Positions 1-55,645 of a stretch of DNA of 64,000 nucleotides are shown here, in pieces. How positions within the stretch are numbered: the stretch's first letter is position 1; each line of letters starts with the position of its first letter. The translations under genes were made by a program, and so were the position numbers. The notes under the pieces were generated by a model. That model saw nothing but the letters and a program-made list of their open reading frames with translations. It was not told where the DNA came from and made no database searches. Origin of the DNA: Minisyncoccota bacterium (lineage in GTDB: Bacteria > Patescibacteriota > Minisyncoccia > Phycocordibacterales > PALSA-1337); NCBI GenBank assembly GCA_041665325.1, contig JBAYJB010000004.1, forward strand, positions 1,048 to 65,047, written 5' to 3'.

Positions 1-3000
1 TTGCCCTGCTTCGTGATCGAAACAGTATATGTGGACACGCTCGAATAGCAAGCAGATGAGTTGAACACACCCCCAGAGACAAGATTCTCATTCTCGAAAC
101 AGAGCTGAGCAGGAATCTTATTCTTGTAACCGGAAACATCGGGGCCGATCGGCGGCCAGGCGACACTGCCGAACCAGCTCGGCTTGCTACCAAGATACAA
201 GGAGTTTGGTATGGCTGTAGAACACGCGGAATTATCTGTTTGATAAGCATCGGCGTAGAGATCGTAGTTACCGCACATGTTCGCTGTCCCCTGCGAGCGG
301 GTGTCGAACTGGGTATTGTCATTCTGATCCAATCCCCAACTGATCGTCTTGTTGCCGTTCACTCCGGGCGTGTTGAATATGTTGCCGACCAGATTGGTAT
401 ACAGACTATCCTTCTGGATATCGACAGTCCATGGATAATAGATCTGGCCAGGGGGATTGATCCCCAAAGAATGATCCCTAGTCGCCCAATTCCGGAAGAA
501 GGTGTTGTACTTGCTTCCCCCAGTGGCGTTATCACTACCAAGATGGGCGACGATGTTGCCCTCGTAAAGATTCATGTAATTCCCGCCGCCGTGAACGACC
601 GCGTCTATCATCAGATAATCCATCGGTATTGATTCATTCAGGGGATCTTTTGAGTAATTATAACCATAGATATTGCCATTGACGCCGATCTCCATCTCTA
701 GAGCATGCCTGGTGTGATAGAAGATATTATTCTCCACTAGATTATTCCCGGCATTGTTGAACATCGCGATGCCATAGCCGGCATTCCCACCATACTGCCA
801 GCTCTCGTGAAAATAGCTGTCTCGCACAACACAGCCGTATGTTGAATTCAAATTAACATGATAATTGTATGTCTTGTAACTTTCTACCCCGCTGATCCAA
901 CAATTCACCGCCTTGCCGATGTTGATGTTGCTGCCAGAGGTGTTATCTGTCTTCTCTACATATAGATCTTCGATACCGGCGTTAGTCGTGTTATTCAATT
1001 TGAATATTTCGGGCCCGTACGACTGTTCGTAGGTCACGAACAAGGGGTCGCTCAAGCCGACATCATAGTATCCGCCCAGGTCTGCGCTCTTACTGGTGAT
1101 CTTCACGATTTGTGATGTTTCGTATGGCAGATAATCATAATTTTCCTTCAAAACCGGGATAGCGTAGTTGTTCCCTGCCGGATAGATGTAATATTTGTCG
1201 CCGGCATTCCAGGTCGTGCGACCAGCCGGAGACCAATTGGAGACTGGTGAGACAGTGATCGTGTTTGAGGTGTTGGCTGTGATGGTGCCTATAGCAAACG
1301 CGCTATAGTTCTCTATCTTATAGCCGACCCACTGGTTAGCCGTCCATGTGACGGCACCGTCCGTCAGGGTTGTCGCCCCATTTGATCCCGTATGTGTGCC
1401 TGAATAAGTACAATTCGCATTCGCGCAATAAGAGAGGTTCTTCTGTCGGACCACGATATAATCTCCGACGCTGAAAGCAGAGCTCTGGACAACGCTGATG
1501 GTTTGGGAGTCCTTAGTCCAGTTCGTTGCCCCAGATTTCATCGTGCCCACCACGCCGACATTGGATGGGCCTTGAATAGCGATCGCTGTATTCGCATTGT
1601 GCAACATTATCTTTGTCAGAGCCGACCCGCTGCCTCTCAATGTCTTGTTGGATGGAACGGTCACCGCCGAATCTATCCGGTAGGTGCCGGCAGGAAGTTT
1701 GATCGTCCTATTTGATGACGCATTATTGAGACATGTTTGGATTTGTGCAGACATGTTTGTTGCTCCGGTATCATCCGATGGTGTACAGGCGACTTCTGTA
1801 TAGTCTGGTATGACATAGCTTGATCCGGCATTTCTGGACCAGTCGATCTTGGCTTGGTCCGGAATGACTCCTGATGGAATATTTGAACTGAAAGTCGCCG
1901 TGACTGTGAGATCGGCTGTCACCGTCACCACACAAGAACCACTGCCCGAACATCCGCCCCCGGACCAACCGGAGAAAGTAGAACCTGAAGAAGGAGTGGC
2001 AGTGAGGGTTATCTGTGTACCACTGGTGATATTCGATTGAGTACAAGTGGAGCCACAAGAAATAGAGCCGCCTGATACGGTACCTGATCCAAGCCCGGAC
2101 TTGGATGTCGATAAGGTGTAACTCGAAGCTACGGGAGAGGTCGTGAAAGTAGTACCGGCTGAAATCGCAAGGTTGCCAGAAGCGTCCCTGGACTTCACTC
2201 TATAGTGGTAGATAGTGTTGGAGGAAAGACCTGACAGAGTCCGCGTGTGCATGGTGACAAGAGAAGAATCAAGAGCGGTGATGCTACCATAATCGACAGT
2301 CAGCCCATATTCCACTTGAGAGTCGGATGATTCATCGGTAGCCCAGCTTATGATCGCCCCAGTCTGGGTGATCGTGGATGCATCTACCGAGGAGATGCTC
2401 GGTGGAGCTGTATCAGATGACGGTGAGGCAACAGAGAAGGATACACCATAATCGGCAGTATTCGCGTTGTTGGCCACATCCTGACACCTCACAAAATAAC
2501 CATATGAAGCGGCGTCGGCAAGACCAGTGATGACGGATGTGTGTGATGTCCCCCCAGTGGTCGTAAAGGTATCCGATATGGCGGCGTACGCGGTATTAGC
2601 GACGGTGCCGTATTTGCATGAAGCTGATTCATTCGTGGTCAACGACAGGGTCGTCTGGGTCGTTCCGGCCGGGAGCACGCCCGTCGGAGATCCGGCCGAC
2701 AAAACCGGCGGCGTCGTATCGGCCGGCGGCGTATAAGTGTAATTGTAGAGCTCGGTCACTTCGGCCGAAGATAGGGGCCGGTTGTATATGCGCACATCGT
2801 CCAGATTACCATCAAAATAGTTTCCTCCTGATGACGCGCCTGCTATGAGATTATGGGAACCATCAGATGTCTTGTTCCCATCCCCGCTAGTCGTGTATGA
2901 CTTAGTCATCTCCGCTCCGTTGATATAGATGTGTACATTGGACGCGGACGGACCGCCGTCCCATACGATCACGAGATGGCTCCATGTATTGAGGTATGAC

Positions 3001-3476
3001 GAGGGAAAAGCGATCCTAGCACTAAGGTCAGTCGCTCCGTCGTAATCTTTATTGAAATTGAGCGTCGGGCCATATCCATCGAAGACTATCTGGAAATTAC
3101 CTGACGCGTAGTTAGCTCCCTTGGCAACGATCGCTCCCGCTCTATTCACGCCATAAGAGCGTGGAAAGACCCAAGCGCTGATCGTCATGCCAGAACCGCT
3201 GGCGTCTATATTATCTACAGTTGAAGCAGAGCCGATATTGAGCACATCGTCCGCGCCGTCGAAAACCAAGGAGCCGGAACCGATGTGTCCGGCAGTCCAA
3301 GATGGTCCATTGCTCAGAGTCCCGGGATTGCTGCCAGAGGAATCTGCCGCCGTGAGCCCGGATCCTTCGTCCAGGGTCCAGTATCCGACGAGACCGGCCG
3401 TGATATCAGCTCTGGCGGACTGGTGTACGCCGAAAGAAAGGATGACCGCCAGAAATATCAGATTGGCCTTTTTCAA
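1..3476 (-). CDS. Large secreted multidomain surface protein, 5' part only (continues off the window start). It has a TTG start and the signal peptide MKKANLIFLAVILSFGVHQSARA. Domains read from the translation: LamG/ConA-like lectin (NLDDVRIYNRPLSSAEV), Ig/FN3-like repeats, and a right-handed parallel beta-helix of the pectin-lyase type (NNLVENNIFYHTRHALEME).
   Basis: I translated the reverse strand by hand from 3476 downwards as one long reading frame and noticed no stops, but this was not verified codon by codon. The ORF track misses it because its stop lies outside the window. There is an in-frame TGA immediately upstream of the TTG. Domain motifs were read by eye from the translation. Confidence 0.6.
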   Translation of the reverse strand, partial: MKKANLIFLAVILSFGVHQSARADITAGLVGYWTLDEGSGLTAADSSGSNPGTLSNGPSWTAGHIGSGSLVFDGADDVLNIGSASTVDNIDASGSGMTISAWVFPRSYGVNRAGAIVAKGANYASGNFQIVFDGYGPTLNFNKDYDGATDLSARIAFPSSYLNTWSHLVIVWDGGPSASNVHIYINGAEMTKSYTTSGDGNKTSDGSHNLIAGASSGGNYFDGNLDDVRIYNRPLSSAEVTELYNYTYTPPADTTPPVLSAGSPTGVLPAGTTQTTLSLTTNESASCKYGTVANTAYAAISDTFTTTGGTSHTSVITGLADAASYGYFVRCQDVANNANTADYGVSFSVASPSSDTAPPSISSVDASTITQTGAIISWATDESSDSQVEYGLTVDYGSITALDSSLVTMHTRTLSGLSSNTIYHYRVKSRDASGNLAISAGTTFTTSPVASSYTLSTSKSGLGSGTVSGGSISCGSTCTQSNITSGTQITLTATPSSGSTFSGWSGGGCSGSGSCVVTVTADLTVTATFSSNIPSGVIPDQAKIDWSRNAGSSYVIPDYTEVACTPSDDTGATNMSAQIQTCLNNASSNRTIKLPAGTYRIDSAVTVPSNKTLRGSGSALTKIMLHNANTAIAIQGPSNVGVVGTMKSGATNWTKDSQTISVVQSSAFSVGDYIVVRQKNLSYCANANCTYSGTHTGSNGATTLTDGAVTWTANQWVGYKIENYSAFAIGTITANTSNTITVSPVSNWSPAGRTTWNAGDKYYIYPAGNNYAIPVLKENYDYLPYETSQIVKITSKSADLGGYYDVGLSDPLFVTYEQSYGPEIFKLNNTTNAGIEDLYVEKTDNTSGSNINIGKAVNCWISGVESYKTYNYHVNLNSTYGCVVRDSYFHESWQYGGNAGYGIAMFNNAGNNLVENNIFYHTRHALEMEIGVNGNIYGYNYSKDPLNESIPMDYLMIDAVVHGGGNYMNLYEGNIVAHLGSDNATGGSKYNTFFRNWATRDHSLGINPPGQIYYPWTVDIQKDSLYTNLVGNIFNTPGVNGNKTISWGLDQNDNTQFDTRSQGTANMCGNYDLYADAYQTDNSACSTAIPNSLYLGSKPSWFGSVAWPPIGPDVSGYKNKIPAQLCFENENLVSGGVFNSSACYSSVSTYTVSITKQG

Positions 3477-10409: not shown

Positions 10410-11645
10410 TCAATAATTCCTCAACCGATTGGCCTGGTCGTGCTGGCGGATCTTCTCGTGGGCTTTGGCTTCGATCTGGCGGATGCGCTCGCGGGTGACG
10501 CCGAATTCGCGTCCTACTTCCTCAAGGGTATGAGTGATGCCGTCGGATAGGCCATGTCTCATCTCCAGGATCTTACGCTCCTTCTCGGAGAGGTCGTTCA
10601 GGATGGTGTTGACTTGGTCGCGGAGGATGCGGCGTGAAGATTCCTGGTCCGGCGAAAGGATCTTATCATCAGGAACGAAATCCTGCAGGGTCGATTTGCT
10701 GTCATCACTGTCGTCGCCAACGGGCGATTCCAGAGAGACGACATCCTGCTCGATCTTCTCGATCTGATAGACCTTCTCGACATCCATACCCATCTCCGTG
10801 GCGATCTCGTCAGGCAGAGGCTCGCGGCCCAGGTCCTGCATGAGGCGGCGGACCACCTGCTTATACTTGGCGATCGTCTCTACCATGTGGACGGGCACGC
10901 GGATGGTACGGGATTGGTCAGCCAGGGCGCGCGTGATAGCCTGGCGGATCCACCAGGTGGCATAAGTCGAGAATTTGTAGCCCTTGGTCCAGTCGAACTT
11001 ATCGACGGCGCGGAAGAGGCCGAGGTTGCCTTCTTGGATGAGGTCGAGCAGGGTCAAGTCCGGCGAGCGTCCGACGTACTTCTTGGCGATCGAGACCACC
11101 AGACGGAGGTTGGCCTTGGCGAGAAGATTCTTGGCTTCGAGGTCTTCTTTCTGGATGCGCTTGGCCAGTTCCTTCTCCATGGCAGCATTGATGAGAGGAT
11201 ATTGGCCGATCTCCTTCAAGTACATCTGGATGGAGTCGTAAGCGGAGTCGGAGCCAGAGCGTGAATAGTGCGGCACAGCCTTCTTGTCCTTCTCCTTGAG
11301 CTCCTCGACTTCGAGGAGGCCGCCGCCTTCGAGCACGTCTACGCCGGCTGTCGAAAGCTTGGTATAGAGACTATCGAGGAAGACGATATCGTTCTCGATC
11401 TGCGGGAACTCTTTCATGATCTCGTCATAGGTGACGAAACCGCGGTCGCGTCCCTTCTGGATGAGCGTGTTGGCCTTGGCCTCAAAATTCTTCACGTAAG
11501 AACCGGAGTCTTTGCGCGCCGGACCCTTTGTTTTGCCCTTTTTGGCCACGGCTTTCTTGGGCTTGCCCTTCTTCGCTGGCTTGGCGCGCTTGATAGACCG
11601 ACTAGAATGTGCAGCCGGACGAGCTGCTTTTTTGTGTTTAGGCAT
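10410..11645 (-). CDS. rpoD: RNA polymerase sigma factor RpoD (sigma-70) with a Lys-rich N-terminal tail
   Basis: Regions 2-4 are recognisable ([32 protein letters not shown]) and the gene sits in the classic dnaG-rpoD arrangement. Confidence 0.95.
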
Positions 11646-11705: not shown

Positions 11706-13556
11706 TTACTTATTCTCCCTCTTTTTGCCTATATCGGCCTTACGGATAGACAGGGCCTGGCATTTCTTGGCTAATTCAGCGACTAGCGCCTGCTCTCCCC
11801 CGGTCCTTTCAGCGGCCTTTAGCTCTGTCATGGCCTGGATCAACTCGATATTGACGAGATCCCCCTCGAAGTTGGTGATGAGCTCGCGCATATGGATGTC
11901 GAAGCGTTCGGGTTTATCACCATAGAATGCTTCGGCTTCAAAGGAGAAGTCGCTCATGAGCGGCTTGATCTTCTCTATCCGTTGCTCATATGTCGAGTCG
12001 GCAATCTTCCTGATCTCTTCGCGGTAGGCGACAGCGCCAGGTAGGGCGGCTTTTTCCATCAGGTCAAGAAGCCCGAACATGCGGCGCTCGACGAGGTCGA
12101 CTCGGGTGTTAGCGGACAGTGAAGCACCTGCACCGCCTCCTCTCGGGGACAACGGTACACCCCCTCGATCCTCGCCCTTGGCTCCTCCTCGAGGAGTACC
12201 GTTCTCCCCTGCGGAGGCGGCTGATTTGGAACTTTTGTCCGTCTCCTCCTTGCTTTTCTTCTCAACCGCACTCAAATCATCTCGCATCGCCTGTTCCGGC
12301 AGACCGGTCTTGTCGGCAATCAATTTGATCGCATAAGCCTTGTCGGTTGCACTTTCGATGGCTATTACGAAAGGTAAGACTCTTTCGCGGATCAACTTGG
12401 GAGTCTTCCTTGGATCTTTTTCTTCACGTAGCACGTTGTTCAGCTCAAACTCCACCACCGCTGTGGCTTTGCGCAGAACATTCTTCCAGTCTTCAGGATT
12501 GCCCAAGACGAGATCAGCCGGATCTTTTCCACCGGTAATATCCGCAACCTTCACATCCATCCCAAGCGAGAGGGCTATGCCGGCCGCGCGCATAGCAGCC
12601 TTCCGTCCCGCGGCATCAGAATCAAAGGCGATGATGACATTCTGGGAAAGGCGGCGCAAAAGACCCAGGTTGTTGATGACGCCGTCCTTGTTCGATTCAG
12701 CATCCGTCAGGGCTGTCCCAGAAGCCGCCACGACATTCTTGACGCCAGCCTGATATGACATGATGAGGTCCATCTGCCCTTCCACCATGATGGAATAGTC
12801 CAACTGGCGGATGAATGATTTTGATTTATCCAAACCATAGAGCACAGACGACTTGTCGAAGAGCGGCGTATCGGGGCTATTCAAGTACTTTGCCGACTTA
12901 CCGTCGTCCTTCAGGATGCGGCCGGTGAATGCCACGACGCGCCCGCTCGAATCGGTGATCGGGAACATCACGCGCCCGCGGAAACGATCGTAGTAATTAC
13001 CGGTGTTGTCTTCTGCCCTCTTGGCCAAGCCGGCCTTCTCGATCAGATCATTTGGCCACTTCTTGGCCTGCAAATAAGCATGCAGATTCCTCCAGCCTTC
13101 TGGAGCCCAACCTATTCTAAATTCTTTAGCCGTCTTATCAGTGATACCGCGCCTCTTCACATATTCTTTAGCTTCAGTTGACTTACTCAACTGATCCTCA
13201 AAATATTTCGCCGTCTCCTCCATGATCTGGAACAATCGGTCTTTCTCACCGTCGGCCTTGGCATCGAAGACCAATGGCACCCCTGCCCTGTCGGCCAACA
13301 CTTTCAATGCGCCCCGGAAGTCCAACCCCTCGAACTGCTCCACAAATGAGAAGATATCGCCCTTGGCGCCACAGCCGAAACAGTAGTAACCACCGCGCTC
13401 CGGTGAGATGAAGAACGAGGCCGTCTTCTCGTGGTGGAAGGGACACTTGGCCTTGAATGACTTGCCGGCCTTCTCGAGTTTGACATACGACGCTATAACC
13501 TCCTCGATCGGTAGGCGGCTCTTGATCTCCTCGACAGTACTGCGGTTCATGGGCAT
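11706..13556 (-). CDS. dnaG: DNA primase DnaG
   Basis: Zinc ribbon CPFHHEKTASF...CFGCG and a TOPRIM domain. GGTTATAAT lies 6 nt upstream of the ATG. Confidence 0.95.
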   Translation of the reverse strand: MPMNRSTVEEIKSRLPIEEVIASYVKLEKAGKSFKAKCPFHHEKTASFFISPERGGYYCFGCGAKGDIFSFVEQFEGLDFRGALKVLADRAGVPLVFDAKADGEKDRLFQIMEETAKYFEDQLSKSTEAKEYVKRRGITDKTAKEFRIGWAPEGWRNLHAYLQAKKWPNDLIEKAGLAKRAEDNTGNYYDRFRGRVMFPITDSSGRVVAFTGRILKDDGKSAKYLNSPDTPLFDKSSVLYGLDKSKSFIRQLDYSIMVEGQMDLIMSYQAGVKNVVAASGTALTDAESNKDGVINNLGLLRRLSQNVIIAFDSDAAGRKAAMRAAGIALSLGMDVKVADITGGKDPADLVLGNPEDWKNVLRKATAVVEFELNNVLREEKDPRKTPKLIRERVLPFVIAIESATDKAYAIKLIADKTGLPEQAMRDDLSAVEKKSKEETDKSSKSAASAGENGTPRGGAKGEDRGGVPLSPRGGGAGASLSANTRVDLVERRMFGLLDLMEKAALPGAVAYREEIRKIADSTYEQRIEKIKPLMSDFSFEAEAFYGDKPERFDIHMRELITNFEGDLVNIELIQAMTELKAAERTGGEQALVAELAKKCQALSIRKADIGKKRENK

Positions 13557-13592
13557 AGAAGTATTATAACCCCAAAACGAGTTTGCGCACGT

Positions 13593-14051
13593 TCACGCGA
13601 GCTTCTCAAATGCCTCCAAGATTGGCATCTGATATGGATAGATCTTTTGCTTGGCTTGTTCGATTGTAAAATATTCCCCACGGTCCACCTCAGGAATAGT
13701 CATCCTCTTGCCGGAATGTGGCGGCCAGTCGATCTCACAAGTGTTGCTGACCAGATTGGCCGGGTCAAAATCTCCCTGGAATGCCCAGGCATGAACAATT
13801 TTATTTGGATATTTGGCAGAACCAAGTGGAAAAAAAGGTTCTGTAGATTTGAAATTTGTTTCTTCCTCAAACTCCCTGACCGCCGTAACAAGTAAACCTT
13901 CCCCGTCATGAGTTTCCCCTTTCGGTATGCTCCAATAACCAAAATCTTTATTCTTCCAGAATGGGCCGCCGGGATGCACAAGGAATACCTCCCGTTTACT
14001 ATCGCGGATACGGTACATGAGCAATCCTGCGGCGATCTTAGGGGGTATCAT
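13593..14051 (-). CDS. NUDIX hydrolase
   Basis: Nudix box GETHDGEGLLVTAVREFEEETN. Confidence 0.85.
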   Translation of the reverse strand: MIPPKIAAGLLMYRIRDSKREVFLVHPGGPFWKNKDFGYWSIPKGETHDGEGLLVTAVREFEEETNFKSTEPFFPLGSAKYPNKIVHAWAFQGDFDPANLVSNTCEIDWPPHSGKRMTIPEVDRGEYFTIEQAKQKIYPYQMPILEAFEKLA

Positions 14052-14692
14052 TATTTGTAGAGATTCTTAATATCTTTGACAAGCTCTGGGAATTTTTCCT
14101 GTCGGAAATGACCGCGGTCTTTGAAGATCTTAATCTGTGCCTTAGGTAAAAACGTCACGTATTTTTTGAAGTCAGCAAATTTTACCAGTGGATCATCCTT
14201 GCTGTGATATAGGTGTAAACGATCTCCCAAATCATTCAACTTCGTAAGTTTCTTTGGCAGAATGAAATCAGCCATCTTCTCTTTATTTGTATTGCAAAAC
14301 GGCGCAGCAATCAAAAATATGCCTGCAGACTTTTTGGTATCCTTATTCTCCGAAAAATACTTCGCCAAAAAGATGCCCCCCAACGAGTGGCCGACGAAGA
14401 CCGCACCCTTATCAACGAAGCGAAGCAGCCTTTCGAACCAGATCTTCCATTCACTGTACTTTCCATTCCAACGTTTGCCCGGCATCTCCGGATAGAATAG
14501 CTCAAAATCAGAGCCAAGATCGATGCCTAGATTTTCTTTCCACTTATTTTTATCTTCCGATTTGAAATCCTCTCGATCAACCGGGCATTTTTTCAGGTCA
14601 GATATGTATTCCTGATACGTATCATATGCATTGCCTCCATGAATCAAAATGACTTGTTTCCTCATGGGTCGTATTATACACAAAATAAACAC
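14051..14692 (-). CDS. Alpha/beta-fold serine hydrolase (YdeN/RBBP9-like esterase)
   Basis: Nucleophile-elbow motif VFVGHSLGG, about 200 aa. Confidence 0.7.
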   Translation of the reverse strand: MFILCIIRPMRKQVILIHGGNAYDTYQEYISDLKKCPVDREDFKSEDKNKWKENLGIDLGSDFELFYPEMPGKRWNGKYSEWKIWFERLLRFVDKGAVFVGHSLGGIFLAKYFSENKDTKKSAGIFLIAAPFCNTNKEKMADFILPKKLTKLNDLGDRLHLYHSKDDPLVKFADFKKYVTFLPKAQIKIFKDRGHFRQEKFPELVKDIKNLYK

Positions 14693-14861
14693 AAAAGCCC
14701 CCGAAGGGGCGACTGTGTTACCACTAACATTAGGTCCGGTCTACCAGCCGACATTAATCGACTAAATAAGTTTACGCCCAATTGCACGGTTGTCAATTGT
14801 AGACACGACGGGAAATGTTTAAGAAGTTATGAATAAAAGTTAAAATAATTATGAAGATTTT

Positions 14862-14903
14862 TTGGGCAAAAAAATGGCCCCAGGATCAGAAGATCCCGGG
14901 GCC
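14862..14903 (-). terminator. Strong intrinsic terminator (minus strand)
   Basis: Reverse-strand GGGCCCCGGGATCTTCTGATCCTGGGGCC followed by ATTTTTTTGCCC. Confidence 0.75.
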
Positions 14904-15262
14904 CTAACATCTAACTTTTCAGAAGCTTTTGGCTTATGGATGCGCGCGCATCCGAGTGATTGTTCCCAGATAAATGTCTCTGTGGAGTTCCCTGCACTCA
15001 GCCGACAGGGAAAGCTTGTCTTTTATTCTATTTCCCAAAACCAGTGTTGACGATATTGCTTTCAGATTCTCGTCTACAAAGGTCTGGTAAGACACATTAC
15101 TAACGCGATATTACGCCGCCTGCTCGTATGTGACAAGACACAGGGGCATCGCATCAAACATCTAACCGTTTACGAAGAACTAACGAATCTAACTCCCTAA
15201 CAAGTTGCCAACAGTACCTAGGTACATCAGGATCGTAGCCTCTATCACCACTTCATCCTGAC
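14864..15262 (-). ncRNA. Candidate structured ncRNA of unknown family (about 400 nt), bounded by a consensus promoter and a terminator and lacking any ORF
   Basis: An extended -10 promoter lies at 15269-15296, a terminator at 14862-14903, and there is no ORF longer than 16 codons on this strand. Internal hairpins are present, e.g. TCAGGAT...ATCCTGA and the palindrome GGATGCGCGCGCATCC. Confidence 0.45.
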
Positions 15263-15268
15263 TAGACC

Positions 15269-15296
15269 AGTATAGCACACTCATTAGTTTTGTCAA
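15269..15296 (-). promoter_or_regulatory. Near-consensus sigma-70 promoter with an extended -10 element (TTGACA-N16-TGcTATACT) on the minus strand
   Basis: Reverse strand reads TTGACAaaactaatgagtgtgcTATACT. Confidence 0.6.
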
Positions 15297-15371
15297 GTAC
15301 AATTAAACTTTGTATGTTTCATGGCTAAAAGAAGCCTAAAATAAGGGTTTTTAGGACATCTGATTTGTGAT

Positions 15372-15402
15372 TACAAAAACAGCCCTTATTCAGGGCCGCT
15401 TT
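15372..15402 (-). terminator. Intrinsic terminator just after the rpoC stop codon
   Basis: Reverse strand: GCCCTGAATAAGGGC followed by TGTTTTTGT. Confidence 0.6.
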
Positions 15403-15426
15403 TGTGCTTATAAAATACTGATTTTT

Positions 15427-19116
<3,690 letters not shown>

Positions 19117-19131: not shown

Positions 19132-22100
19132 TTACTCTTCTGAAACGATCTTCGACTTGCTGATAAGTTCCACATTCAAGGCCAAGCCACGCAAAGTTTT
19201 CAAGAGGACATTGAAGGAAGCCGGTAGGTTCGGCGCGCGGAGCTTCTCGCCCTTGACGATGGCATCGAAGGTCTGCGAACGGCCGATGATGTCGTCTGAC
19301 TTGACCGTGAGGATCTCACGCAGAGTGTGTGCGGCACCGTGGCCAAGGAGGGCCCAGACTTCCATCTCTCCGAAGCGCTGGCCTCCGCCCTGGGCCTTGC
19401 CACCAAGCGGCTGTTGAGTGATCAGGGAGTAAGGTCCGATGGAACGCATGTGGATCTTGTCTTCCACCATGTGGTGTAGCTTCATGATGTACATATAACC
19501 GACAGCGACTGGCTGGTGGAAATGTTCGCCGGTGCGGCCGTCGCGGAGCTTCATCTTGCCGCTGGCATCGAAGCCGGCCTTGACGAGCTCCTGTTTGATC
19601 TCGGCATCAGTAGCTCCGGTGAATGGCGGGACGATGGCCTGATAGCCGAGAGCATTCGCGGCCAGACCGAGGTGGAGCTCTAGGATCTGACCGAGGTTCA
19701 TGCGGCTAGGCACGCCGAGCGGAGTGAGGATCACGTCGATCGGGCGGCCATCTTCCATATACGGCATCTCTTCGACAGGTAGGATCTTGGAGATGACGCC
19801 TTTGTTGCCGTGGCGGCCGGCCATCTTGTCGCCGACGGAGATATTCCTGACTTCAGCCACTTCGATATAGATCTTCTTGATGATGCCGGACTCGAGCTTG
19901 TCTCCCCTCTCACGAGAGAAGATCTTGACCGAGATGACGCGGCCGCGTTTGCCGTTCTCCATACGTTTCGAAGTGTCTTTGACGTCGCGAGCCTTCTCGC
20001 CGAAGATCGAGCGCAGAAGGCGCTCCTCGGGAGTGAGCTGGGTCTCGCCTTTCGGAGAGATCTTGCCGACGAGGATATCGCCGGGACGGACTTCAGCGCC
20101 GATCCTGATGATGCCCTCTTCCGTGAGATTCTTGAGCTTGACTTCACCGATGTTCGGGATATCACAGGTCGTGATCTCCGGACCGAGCTTGGTGTCGCGG
20201 ACATTCACCACGAATTCCTCGATGTGGATGGAGCTCCACTTGGAGTTCTGGACCACGCGCTCGGAAAGGATGATAGCGTCTTCGTAGTTGTTACCGGACC
20301 AGGACATGAAGGCGATCAGGGCGTTGTGGCCGAGAGCGATCTGACCCTGGTCAGAGGTAGAAGTATCGGCCAGGATGTCTCCCTTCTTGACCTTGTCACC
20401 GACCGAGACGATCGGACGTTGATGGAAAGCCGTGAAACCGTTGGTGCGCTGGAAGAGGACGAGCGGATACTCGTGCTTCTTGCTGCCTTTCTTGTCTCCC
20501 TGGAAGATGATCTTCCGAGCATCTACCGAGACGATCTCCCCATCTTCCGGAGCGACGACGACGCGGCCGGTGTCTAGGACGGCCTTGGCCTCGATACCGG
20601 TGGCGACGAAGGGGGCCTCCGGTACGAGACATGGCGTGGCTTGTCTCTGCATGTTCGAGCCCATGAGCGCGCGGTTGGCGTCATCATGGTTGAGGAACGG
20701 GATGAGCGAAGTGGCGATAGAGAAGGCCTGATCAGTAGCCACGTCGATGAAGTCTACTTCAGTAGTCTTGGCCAAGTCGGGCTTGCCGTTCCGGCGCACT
20801 TCGATGTCGTCGCCGATGAGCGTGCCGTCGGCTTGGCGCGGCGTAGCGGCGTGAGCGATGCGATAATTCTCCTCTTCCAGAGCATTCAAGTAGAGGATCT
20901 CTTTGGTGATCTTGCCGTCCTTGACCTTGGCATACGGAGTCTCGATCATGCCGAAATCATTGATATGGGCGTAAGTCGTGAGGCGCAGCACGAGGCCGAT
21001 GTTCGGACCTTCCGGCGTGTGGATCGGACAAAGGCGGCCATAGTGGGACGGGTGCACGTCGCGGACTTCGAAGCCGGCGCGATCGCGCGAGAGGCCGCCG
21101 GGTCCGAGGGCCGTCAGGGTGCGGAGATTCTCGACTTCGGCGAGGACGTTCTCCTGGGTCATGAATTGCGAAAGCTGGTTGGTCGTGAAAAATTCCTTGA
21201 TACGGGCCTGCAGAGGGCGCGGATAGATGAAGGAGACGGGCATGGTGATGTCCGGCTCGATCGTGGACATCTTGTCCTGGATATTCCTCTTCATCTGCGA
21301 GAGGCCGAGGCGGATGCGCTGTTCGAGGAGCTCGCCGATATACCTGACACGGCGGGAGCCGAGGTGGTCGATGTCATCGGCCTGCATGTCTGGCGTGGCA
21401 TTGAGCATGATGATATGAGAAATGGCGGTAGCGATATCGTCGAGAGAGAGCGTGCGGCGCTCGAGAGCCTTCTCGTCCATGGGCTTGGCGAAGCGCTTAT
21501 TGAAGCGGAAACGTCCGACGCGCGAGATATCATAGCGGTCGTGGTGGAGGATGGCGGTGATGAAGGAACGGGCGTTCTCGGCTGTGGCTAGATCACCATC
21601 GCGCAGGCGCTTGTGGATCTCGATGTAAGCTTCCGGAATGGTCTTGGCATGATCCTTGGCGAGCGTGAGCTCGATCGACTTCGTGGCGATATCGTTGCCC
21701 TTGAAGAGGTCCAATATGGCTTGATTGGTATCAGCGCCGAGGACGCGGATGAGTGAAGTGACCGGGAATTTGCGCTTGCGATCGATGCGGCAATAGATGG
21801 TGCCGTCAGCATCGGTCTCGATCTCCATCCAGACACCGCGAGCCGGGATGATCTTGGCGCCAAAATAGTTGCGGCCCTTGACTTCGGTGGCCGTGAAGAA
21901 GATACCGAAGGAGCGAGCGAGTTGCGGCACGATGACACGCTCGACGCCGTTCACGATGAATGTGCCGTGATCAGTCATGAATGGCAAGTCGGCCAGGAAG
22001 ATCTCCTGCTCCTTGACCACATTGAGAGACTTATTCTTGAGGGTGACCTTGATCTTGATCTGGCCCTCGTAGTTGAGCTTGTTGTCCTTGGCGTAGTGCT

Positions 22101-22320
22101 CGCCGAACTTGGGCGGGATGACTTCGAGGCCGCCGAGCGAGAGCTCGAACTTCTTCTCGGCATAGTCCTTGATCGGAGAGAATTCCTTGAGGAGGTTCGG
22201 CATCCCCTTCTCAATGAGCGAAGTGAAAGAGAGGAGCTGGGACTCGACCAGATGCGGCATCTCCGTGAGCGGTTCCTGATACTTGGAGAAATATTTCTTG
22301 GGACGGGCGGCGGTAGTCAT
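19132..22320 (-). CDS. rpoB: DNA-directed RNA polymerase subunit beta
   Basis: 1062 aa with conserved RpoB blocks (e.g. GEMEVWALLGHGAAHTLRE near the C-terminus), located directly upstream of rpoC. Confidence 0.98.
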   Translation of the reverse strand: MTTAARPKKYFSKYQEPLTEMPHLVESQLLSFTSLIEKGMPNLLKEFSPIKDYAEKKFELSLGGLEVIPPKFGEHYAKDNKLNYEGQIKIKVTLKNKSLNVVKEQEIFLADLPFMTDHGTFIVNGVERVIVPQLARSFGIFFTATEVKGRNYFGAKIIPARGVWMEIETDADGTIYCRIDRKRKFPVTSLIRVLGADTNQAILDLFKGNDIATKSIELTLAKDHAKTIPEAYIEIHKRLRDGDLATAENARSFITAILHHDRYDISRVGRFRFNKRFAKPMDEKALERRTLSLDDIATAISHIIMLNATPDMQADDIDHLGSRRVRYIGELLEQRIRLGLSQMKRNIQDKMSTIEPDITMPVSFIYPRPLQARIKEFFTTNQLSQFMTQENVLAEVENLRTLTALGPGGLSRDRAGFEVRDVHPSHYGRLCPIHTPEGPNIGLVLRLTTYAHINDFGMIETPYAKVKDGKITKEILYLNALEEENYRIAHAATPRQADGTLIGDDIEVRRNGKPDLAKTTEVDFIDVATDQAFSIATSLIPFLNHDDANRALMGSNMQRQATPCLVPEAPFVATGIEAKAVLDTGRVVVAPEDGEIVSVDARKIIFQGDKKGSKKHEYPLVLFQRTNGFTAFHQRPIVSVGDKVKKGDILADTSTSDQGQIALGHNALIAFMSWSGNNYEDAIILSERVVQNSKWSSIHIEEFVVNVRDTKLGPEITTCDIPNIGEVKLKNLTEEGIIRIGAEVRPGDILVGKISPKGETQLTPEERLLRSIFGEKARDVKDTSKRMENGKRGRVISVKIFSRERGDKLESGIIKKIYIEVAEVRNISVGDKMAGRHGNKGVISKILPVEEMPYMEDGRPIDVILTPLGVPSRMNLGQILELHLGLAANALGYQAIVPPFTGATDAEIKQELVKAGFDASGKMKLRDGRTGEHFHQPVAVGYMYIMKLHHMVEDKIHMRSIGPYSLITQQPLGGKAQGGGQRFGEMEVWALLGHGAAHTLREILTVKSDDIIGRSQTFDAIVKGEKLRAPNLPASFNVLLKTLRGLALNVELISKSKIVSEE

Positions 22321-54922: not shown

Positions 54923-55004
54923 AAGTTAAACAACGGACCCTCGGACCATTCATGATCCCGCAAAGTTAAACAACGGACCCTCGGACCATTCATGATCCCG
55001 CAAG
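54914..55004 (-). repeat. 2.3 tandem copies of a 40-nt unit (GATCCCGCAAAGTTAAACAACGGACCCTCGGACCATTCAT); each unit is a deletion derivative of the tRNA-Gln 5' half, and the first copy overlaps the tRNA 5' end
   Basis: Perfect 40-nt tandem identity, with unit alignment to the tRNA acceptor, D and anticodon arms. Confidence 0.85.
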
Positions 55005-55044
55005 TACCATACAAAATACGCTAAAAAGACCGAATATTCAAGGG

Positions 55045-55326
55045 TTAGCCAAAGAGCTTGGAATGACTACCAATGCGCCATAAGATGACACTCGCAGTCG
55101 ACTGATCTATCCTATATATCACAAGTAGATCGAAACTCAGGTGATATTCGCGATATTCAGACATGTCACCTCCCAGAGCATGGTCTTGATAGATATCATC
55201 GAGCCTCACACCCATAGCCAAAGTTCTAATAGTATATGCAAACTTCCCACGGTCAAAAAAACCGGACTTAGCGAGTTTCCGGAATTCTTTTTTGAACCTT
55301 CTGCTGTATATGACCGCGTATATCAA
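55045..55326 (-). CDS. yafQ: Type II toxin, YafQ/RelE family mRNA interferase
   Basis: HALGGDMSEYREYHLSFDLLVIYRID...WRIGSHSKLF matches the YafQ pattern (H.L.G...Y.E.H...D.LLIY...R.GTH..LF). Confidence 0.75.
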   Translation of the reverse strand: MIYAVIYSRRFKKEFRKLAKSGFFDRGKFAYTIRTLAMGVRLDDIYQDHALGGDMSEYREYHLSFDLLVIYRIDQSTASVILWRIGSHSKLFG

Positions 55327-55599
55327 CTAGGACATCATATCATCCATCATTTCTTCGACGCTAGAGAATCTCTTGCTAAGCTTTTCAGTTCTTACTTGAC
55401 GTAAGAACTTCTGCTCTTGCGCTACAGTATAACCATTTACAGTCAATCCCTTGATAGGTAGAGACTTGCTCCTTACCACCTGTGTGAGAAAAACCTTGAT
55501 CGCCGACGAGAGGTCCATACCCAGCTCCTTCAAGATCTTCTGGGCCTTGGCCTTGGTGGATGCGTCGATGCGCAGTTGTAGTGTGGTATCCATGCTCAT
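55327..55599 (-). CDS. dinJ: Type II antitoxin, DinJ/RelB family
   Basis: LQLRIDASTKAKAQKILKELGMDLSSAIKVFLTQVVRSKSLPI: ribbon-helix-helix N-terminus typical of DinJ. Confidence 0.75.
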   Translation of the reverse strand: MSMDTTLQLRIDASTKAKAQKILKELGMDLSSAIKVFLTQVVRSKSLPIKGLTVNGYTVAQEQKFLRQVRTEKLSKRFSSVEEMMDDMMS

Positions 55600-55605
55600 G
55601 GCTCC

Positions 55606-55633
55606 AGTATAGACGATGTACGTACATTGTCAA
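55606..55633 (-). promoter_or_regulatory. Consensus promoter TTGACA-N16-TATACT with the 12-nt palindrome ATGTACGTACAT in the spacer (putative TA operator). The ATG lies 6 nt after the -10 box.
   Basis: Reverse strand TTGACAatgtacgtacatcgtcTATACTggagccATG. Confidence 0.6.
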
Positions 55634-55645
55634 TACACGCCAGAT

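Follow-up and report, generated by a model that had tools for sequence, protein, structure and literature searches.

Downstream of rpoC, in a 64-kb stretch of DNA from an uncultured Patescibacteria/Paceibacterota genome of the candidate phyla radiation (CPR), a candidate noncoding RNA (ncRNA) unit of ~395 nt occupies the spacer that leads to a hydrolase gene, a NUDIX gene, dnaG and rpoD (Table 1). The whole 64-kb stretch is referred to as the window. Every gene around the unit is encoded on the minus strand, including the hydrolase gene, which the initial annotation of this DNA had described as convergent with the unit and which is in fact co-directional and downstream of it. At 734 nt, the spacer between rpoC and the hydrolase gene is the second largest gap free of open reading frames (ORFs) in the window, compared with a median of 46 nt. 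The rpoC terminator stands between the rpoBC operon and the candidate unit. The closest RpoC relatives of the window are CPR metagenome-assembled genomes; ENA contig ERZ27249449:k141_377210 and a Logan contig carry an identical hydrolase protein and identical DNA.

Table 1. Features of the candidate ncRNA unit and its surroundings, in window coordinates.
Feature	Position	Strand	Sequence or remark
Upstream region common with the Taylorbacteria unit	15297..15352	minus	AAAaaCCCTTATTTT...AACAtACAAAGTtTAA; blastn, nhmmer
Promoter, sigma-70-type extended -10	15269..15296	minus	TTGACA-N16-TG-c-TATACT
5′-terminal structured domain	15214..15262	minus	P1 (8 bp) enclosing P1a (5 bp), then P2 (4-5 bp)
Noncoding body, ~310 nt	14904..15213	minus	
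Repeat, two copies	15166-15157 and 14915-14906	minus	GUUAGAUGUU
Body motif	15098-15087	minus	AAUGUGUCUUAC
Body stem	15074-15049	minus	GACGA/UCGUC, 5 bp; 16-nt loop with CUGAAAGCAAUAU
Motif followed by hairpin	15017-14990	minus	AAGCUUUCC, then CCCUG...CAGGG
Palindromic hairpin	14953-14938	minus	GGAUGCGCGCGCAUCC
Intrinsic terminator of the unit	14866..14903	minus	12-bp stem, UUCU loop, then AUUUUUUUG
rpoB	19132-22320	minus	
rpoC	15427-19116	minus	Stop codon 15427-15429
rpoC intrinsic terminator	15376..15399	minus	GCGGCCCUGAAUAAGGGCUGUUUUUG; read directly from the sequence
A+T-rich element	14813..14857	minus	Two 21-nt direct repeats 22 nt apart, TTCATAAnTATTTTAACTTTTnTTnATAACTT; not part of the RNA
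Second small promoter-terminator unit	14690..14796	minus	Promoter TTGACA-N16-TAAACT, ~75-nt body; not part of the RNA
Ser_hydrolase-family alpha/beta hydrolase	14051-14665	minus	
NUDIX protein	13593-14051	minus	
dnaG	11706-13556	minus	
rpoD	10410-11645	minus	

Promoter, terminator and coding content

The unit opens with the near-consensus extended -10 promoter that had been proposed at 15296-15269, which matches the consensus at 11/12 positions and carries the TG. The 64 kb contain, over both strands, four sites that match the promoter consensus at 11/12 positions or more, whereas block shuffles predict 0.54. One of the other three precedes a leaderless RelB/RelE-type gene pair and two lie upstream of long ORFs; because these three drive real genes, near-consensus promoters appear to mark real units in this genome. 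Transcription is predicted to start at ~15262 (G15262), 7 nt past the -10 element, and the region directly upstream of the promoter may represent an UP element or a regulator-binding site. From the quality of the promoter signals alone, the initial annotation suggested that the unit may be highly expressed. At the other end, the predicted strong intrinsic terminator is indeed present at 14903-14876, with nine G-C pairs in its stem.

The earlier statement that the longest ORF spans 16 codons holds for ATG starts but not for GTG or TTG starts, which open ORFs of up to 53 codons. None of the latter has a Shine-Dalgarno sequence or a Pfam match, and Pfam likewise returned nothing for any candidate ORF of the unit or of the homologue described below. 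All three sense frames are full of stop codons. By every available sequence criterion the element is a separate noncoding transcription unit, as first proposed: its own promoter and its own terminator, in the correct orientation, bound a noncoding stretch, which is the generic hallmark of an ncRNA gene.

A homologue in Taylorbacteria

Relatives were collected by anchoring on the RpoC C-terminus, yielding 80 GTDB species-representative loci and 80 JGI metagenome loci in which that segment is up to 93% identical. Contigs from closer RpoC relatives (P0173, P0121, P0142, P0129, P0134) and TypA relatives (P0241, P0242, P0245) were added, giving ~170 loci in all. The DNA searched is proximal to rpoC or typA, and copies elsewhere would be missed. 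An nhmmer search of the RpoC-anchored loci with the candidate unit recovered identical copies only. Permissive blastn gave one real match, to three identical contigs of Candidatus Taylorbacteria (L103/L104/L105, hereafter L103), with 71/105 identities and an E-value of 6e-6; nhmmer gives E 0.003 for the upstream/promoter region of the same locus. The blastn match takes in ~60 nt upstream of the -35 element, the promoter and 13 bases at the start of the transcript. The L103 promoter is identical in its -35 and extended -10 elements (TTGACA, N16, GTGTGCTATACT, with the same spacing), and the 13 shared bases, GUCAGGRURARGU, begin at the same 7-nt distance from the -10 element. Downstream follow a noncoding body of ~480 nt and an analogous terminator that differs in its letters (GGGCACAACG...CGUUGUGCCC, then seven consecutive U), for a total of ~525 nt. 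Upstream of the L103 unit are rpoC and a bPH/Schlafen-AlbA_2 gene, and typA follows it in convergent orientation. In each locus the unit is found no more than 1.3 kb downstream of rpoC, the genes beyond differ, and the full-length RpoC proteins of the two loci are 81% identical.

The resemblance extends to the predicted structure of the RNA. In both transcripts the first ~50 nt (49 nt in the window, opening at the predicted start site) adopt the same architecture, i.e. an 8-bp P1, an enclosed P1a of 4-5 bp and, directly after these, a P2 hairpin of 4-5 bp whose sequence is wholly different in the two RNAs (GUAC/GUAC vs GCGUC/GACGC). In a MAFFT alignment, 17/17 pairs of this 5′ domain are standard in both sequences, with five compensatory and two one-sided compatible changes. 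As a control, sliding the pairing partners by 1-3 columns left 22-47% paired and no compensatory change. A covariance model of the domain scores 63.9 and 58.2 bits on the two units, by construction. This conservation of pairs provides the best evidence that the RNA itself may be under selection.

Beyond the 5′ domain, the two bodies share three collinear motifs: AAUGURUCUURC; a 5-bp stem of differing sequence whose large loop contains UGAAAGCRAU; and CAAGCUUUCC followed by a hairpin. GAAAGC in the loop (15063-15058 in the window) is complementary to GCUUUC (15015-15010), with which it could conceivably form a tertiary pairing. These motifs are not taken as proof of body homology, since a shuffle test leaves the similarity marginal, and a chain of collinear 7-mers between the two bodies is not significant. 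Neither MAFFT nor a custom structure-aware aligner produced a convincing common body fold of the two RNAs. Homology can therefore be called solid for the promoter and the 5′ domain and suggestive for the body.

Minimum-energy and centroid folds of both units are multi-branched, and the 5′ end of the window unit pairs locally rather than with the 3′ end. The L103 body without its terminator folds with z = -4.7, a value that none of 100 shuffles reaches. Two local structures noted initially are present in the window unit, namely the palindrome GGATGCGCGCGCATCC, which maps to 14938-14953, and the hairpin TCAGGAT...ATCCTGA, the loop of which has 21 rather than 22 nt.

No ORF is common to the window unit and L103 in any frame. 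An AUG does occur at the 3′ edge of P1 in both, opening 12 codons in the window (CCUGAUG) and 84 in L103 (CUUGAUG). A HMMER scan of 1.84 billion protein representatives with the 84-codon ORF matched only the ORF itself and one repeat protein, the latter via repeats. Public annotation nevertheless places ‘hypothetical proteins’ of 84 and 99 residues (OHA16893.1, OHA29266.1) over the 5′ half of the Taylorbacteria unit (L103:4798-5052, equivalent to L173:3001-3300), with the 99-residue version beginning inside the -10 promoter element, and a 61-residue protein over the 3′ part. Because the long ORF lacks homologues in those 1.84 billion representatives, these annotations are probably spurious gene calls, and OHA16893.1 may serve as a warning that gene callers place such ‘hypothetical proteins’ on units of this type. 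Four more contigs reached via the annotated ORF are all 100% identical to L103.

Known RNA families and repeats

The unit was compared with the 4227 families of Rfam 15, using gathering scores over the whole window and E-values up to 10 over 14600-15500, on both strands. At gathering score, six tRNAs are the sole matches in the window. At E up to 10, the region around the unit gave chance matches to terminator-like hairpins only, as did L103 and three other loci. This agrees with the earlier failure to recognise RNase P, transfer-messenger RNA (tmRNA), 6S or signal recognition particle (SRP) signatures by eye, and the Rfam check proposed at that time has now been run on both strands without a family match. 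In addition, neither plasmid nor phage collections contain a match to the unit, and two pattern scans of viral contigs returned two chance matches inside a phage tRNA cluster.

The housekeeping RNAs deserve particular attention, as RNase P RNA, tmRNA and large SRP RNA resemble the unit in their size of 350-400 nt and strong promoter. Unlike them, the unit lacks any Rfam match at E up to 10, pairs its 5′ end locally and is absent from close relatives. RNase P RNA (RF00010/RF00011 and relatives) was rejected for want of a covariance-model match in the window region or L103 and of a P4 consensus. ARAGORN calls no tmRNA in the window or L103, and the 3′ end of the unit is a plain 12-bp terminator hairpin with neither T-arm nor CCA. 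SRP RNA has no Rfam match. 6S RNA (RF00013) has no match even at an E-value of 10, and the unit is predicted to fold into multi-branched structures, although fold prediction alone is not conclusive here.

OLE, GOLLD, ROOL, HEARO and raiA have been described as large structured bacterial RNAs (PMC12286853). The unit is comparable to them in being a noncoding RNA candidate of several hundred nucleotides from an uncultured or unusual bacterium, with multi-stem predicted folds; the L103 fold scores z = -4.7. These and other large structured RNAs were nonetheless excluded, as no Rfam 15 match exceeds chance; moreover, the unit is represented by two sequences in which the 49-nt 5′ domain alone is demonstrably conserved. 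Large ornate RNA families show extensive covariation over hundreds of members.

Several further candidates were rejected. A riboswitch, T-box or ribosomal-protein-type leader has no Rfam match, and the L103 homologue is followed by convergent typA. A miniature inverted-repeat transposable element or a CRISPR/TIGR-like array is excluded by the lack of terminal inverted repeats, of an array and of a second copy within the 64 kb. A CsrB-like sponge was dismissed by eye, GGA motifs not being enriched. Unusual tRNAs have reportedly been missed in Patescibacteria (PMC13011429); a tRNA interrupted by a group I intron, an idea prompted by the same paper, was rejected by eye, as the ends of the unit form neither an acceptor stem nor a T-arm.

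Distribution at the rpoC-dnaG junction

Of the ~90 lineages covered by these loci, two have the unit. When 628 kb of related loci and the window were scanned with a covariance model of the 5′ domain, a third member did not turn up, and none of the fetched contigs from closer RpoC relatives or TypA relatives carries the unit. Conservation among relatives, which the initial annotation had named as a criterion, is very narrow: one homologous lineage shows compensatory changes in the 5′ domain, and the similarity of the bodies is marginal. Because it is missing from most relatives, the unit would be accessory rather than housekeeping in function. Were the element unlinked to rpoC, chance would be unlikely to place both copies within 1.3 kb 3′ of that gene in genomes of ~1 Mb; this linkage is, however, subject to ascertainment bias, as only rpoC- and typA-proximal loci were searched.

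The ancestral arrangement in this clade is rpoC-dnaG-rpoD, with a variable rpoC-dnaG interval that is either empty or filled with assorted genes. The block inserted in the window (13500-15400), comprising the RNA unit, the hydrolase gene and the NUDIX gene, has a G+C content of 38-48%, compared with 55-62% in the flanking rpoC and dnaG, which is consistent with acquisition into the ancestral rpoC-dnaG junction.

A candidate stand-alone ncRNA gene

Taken together, the unit is probably a stand-alone ncRNA gene. Its family would be small and undescribed, with a single relative that can be recognised, and this ncRNA is probably lineage-restricted and dispensable. We consider the chances that it is a genuine, transcribed and functional ncRNA to be about evenly balanced; the narrower proposal of a trans-acting regulator or sponge is more tentative. 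The transcript would start at ~15262, directly with the conserved three-helix stem-loop domain, and end at the Rho-independent terminator ~395 nt further on, with no translatable frame in between. It could then act in trans as a stable RNA. The paired 5′ terminus would leave no single-stranded 5′ end, which in other bacteria is the usual way to resist RNases that depend on the 5′ end. The conserved terminus would probably stabilise the transcript or bind a protein, for which the domain may act as a handle, and the fast-evolving body may carry a lineage-specific activity such as base-pairing with targets or titration of a protein.

In kind, this would be an ordinary orphan bacterial ncRNA candidate, whose family appears new but narrow and patchy. 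It shares with generic small RNA (sRNA) genes its own sigma-70 promoter, an intrinsic terminator, the lack of an ORF, a 5′ stem-loop, fast divergence and patchy spread. It differs from them in length, as ~395 nt (~525 nt in L103) is far above the typical size, in having no known Hfq/ProQ-type context or target, and in being a candidate known from sequence alone. Typical base-pairing sRNAs measure 50-250 nt.

A number of observations weigh against a functional ncRNA. First, there are only two independent sequences, all other copies being 100% identical to one or the other; the covariation in the 5′ domain therefore rests on a single pairwise comparison, with the structure drawn from the same two sequences. 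Second, the body is weakly structured. The full unit folds with z = -4.1, most of which comes from the terminator hairpin; the body alone (14906-15262) reaches z = -2.0, with 2/100 shuffles folding as well, and falls at about the 7th percentile among 60 random 359-nt windows of the genome. The initial annotation hence overrated the structure of the unit, and the conservation of the body is also marginal: global alignment of the two bodies gives z = 2.0, with 12/300 shuffles as good. Third, the G+C content of the unit is 47%, compared with 52% for the window, which fits acquired or decaying DNA.

The distribution adds to these concerns. In the closest relative of the window (L083, with 93% identity over the C-terminal segment of RpoC), the site is occupied by another small gene, and in L165 the next gene follows directly after rpoC. 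On the Taylorbacteria side, L111, whose RpoC is 87% identical to that of L103, has the same flanking Schlafen-like and typA genes separated by a spacer of just 58 nt. The unit is missing from L167 and L172 of the same clade, and L170 and L171 (TypA 93% identical to L103) carry other small elements at the site instead. Finally, the rpoC-dnaG interval is a hot spot in which five loci (L084, L087, L110, L116, L131) harbour cassettes of 320-500 nt, each with a promoter and terminator of its own around an ORF of 77-106 codons.

Alternative explanations

These cassettes underlie the main rival explanation, in which the unit is what remains of a small cargo gene after decay: its frame would have eroded while the flanking signals were kept, leaving any transcript functionless. 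In its favour are the cassettes themselves, the ancestral rpoC-dnaG-rpoD order with variable insertions, the patchy distribution, the weak fold and marginal conservation of the body and a G+C content below that of the flanking genes. Yet a tblastx comparison of the unit with every related locus reveals no remnant at the protein level (best E 0.37), and the sole long ORF of the homologue is without relatives among the protein representatives. In addition, promoter, terminator and the compensatory 5′ domain have been kept across 19% RpoC divergence, which is unexpected for neutral decay in a streamlined genome. Because the signals and compensatory changes were kept and no protein remnant was found, we disfavour decay and consider it unlikely.

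A cis-acting leader or attenuator with conditional read-through into the hydrolase-NUDIX-dnaG-rpoD genes appears improbable. The downstream genes are all co-directional, and the terminator hairpin could in principle be conditional. There is, however, no match to a riboswitch, T-box or leader family, and the stretch up to the hydrolase start contains both another promoter-terminator unit and one more extended -10 element. In Taylorbacteria the unit cannot be a leader because convergent typA comes next, leaving nothing downstream to regulate.

Slightly less probable still, the unit could be an mRNA whose product is an orphan protein or one of very small size, encoded either by the ORF that starts with the AUG at the edge of P1 or by a 53-codon GTG ORF (15095-14934). 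The AUG at an equivalent position in both units speaks for such an mRNA, as does the fact that gene callers annotated the L103 ORF. The two AUG ORFs differ in length and have no sequence in common, though, and lack both a Shine-Dalgarno sequence at suitable spacing and a Pfam match; the L103 ORF is devoid of homologues, and the window frames are rich in stops. A small protein gene, which the initial annotation had named as the outcome that would change the call, was accordingly rejected, as the two units have no conserved ORF between them.

Equally doubtful is an RNA polymerase-binding regulator like 6S or mycobacterial Ms1. This idea is suggested by the neighbourhood alone: both copies lie just 3′ of rpoBC and the window unit is also upstream of dnaG-rpoD, a location that hints at a link to transcription. 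Like 6S (RF00013) and Ms1, the unit is noncoding and driven by a strong housekeeping-type sigma-70 promoter, and no 6S RNA is detectable in the window with Rfam. Ms1, at ~300 nt, is comparable in size. On the other hand, the unit has no covariance-model match, its multi-branched folds do not resemble a rod or long helix with a central bubble, and its absence from most relatives argues against a core regulator of transcription; the synteny itself is open to the ascertainment bias mentioned above. We give very little credence to a bolder proposal, according to which the window unit and its Taylorbacteria counterpart are the first two members of a Paceibacterota-specific class of large structured RNAs (400-530 nt) that is linked to rpoBC and acts on the transcription machinery as a 6S/Ms1 analogue. 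We found no report of a regulator of this sort in Paceibacterota.

The stand-alone ncRNA gene, if real, would matter beyond this locus. To our knowledge, the genomes of CPR/Patescibacteria are tiny and hardly any of their regulatory RNAs have been characterised. A strongly promoted RNA of ~400 nt near the polymerase genes could offer an entry point to RNA regulation in these uncultured episymbionts as well as adding a family that Rfam lacks. Its practical value at present is that of a candidate for checking in existing groundwater metatranscriptomes, bearing in mind that the unit looks accessory and lineage-restricted.

Neighbouring elements and other features of the window

Between the candidate and the hydrolase gene lies a second small promoter-terminator unit that the initial annotation did not mention. 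Its body consists of a 5′ hairpin (GUCGA...UCGAC), UGGUGGA, a variable insert, GGUAACACA and a UUCG hairpin between an A-tract and a U-tract. With nhmmer it matches L090:5887-6003 (E 2e-4), L169:3435-3504 (E 0.009) and, more weakly, L085:2943-2982, and a reverse-strand copy was found by eye in L171:1700-1770. It is thus kept in at least three other lineages, before different genes (hydrolase, dnaG, truB) or beside typA, and has no Rfam match. It is possibly a novel sRNA with better conservation than the large unit, or else a bidirectional terminator module that has been conserved.

The A+T-rich element is likewise shared, with blastn matches in L133:5108-5142, L129:5134-5170, L090:5651-5696, L099:3961-4002, L127:5718-5751 and L145:5105-5148 and look-alikes seen by eye in L169, L170 and L171. 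In related genomes it is usually located just upstream of the small conserved unit, and it might bind a protein or act in the manner of an UP element.

Two genes of the window look leaderless. In the hydrolase gene (14665-14685, minus strand), TGTGTATAAT is followed after 6 nt by the ATG, and in the RelB/DinJ-like antitoxin gene (55600-55640, minus strand) the same distance separates TTGACA-N16-TATACT from the ATG. Leaderless translation may be common in this organism. The antitoxin gene (55327-55599) forms a toxin-antitoxin pair with a RelE/YafQ-like gene (55045-55326), both on the minus strand in the region 54923-55600. Located 3′ of the pair are two tandem copies of ~60 nt, each opening with the first nine bases of the adjacent tRNA-Gln, TGCGGGATC, in what looks like an integration scar at this tRNA.

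Elsewhere, a region of ~2.5 kb (633-3186) contains no ORF of more than ~95 codons in a genome that is otherwise ~89% coding, and includes the largest ORF-free gap of the window (633-1502). Its G+C content is ordinary and Rfam gives no match at E up to 0.5; it could consist of decayed genes or be another noncoding region.

Lastly, in the Taylorbacteria relatives L171 (1590-1660) and L170 (1775-1845), tRNA-like sequences on the plus strand of the loci adjoin the small conserved unit. Their acceptor stem is good and their T-arm canonical (GGGGTTCGATTCCCC in L171, GAGGGTTCGATTCCCTT in L170), but the D-arm is aberrant, and ARAGORN calls neither. Possibly, these are unusual tRNAs of the kind reported as missed in Patescibacteria (PMC13011429).

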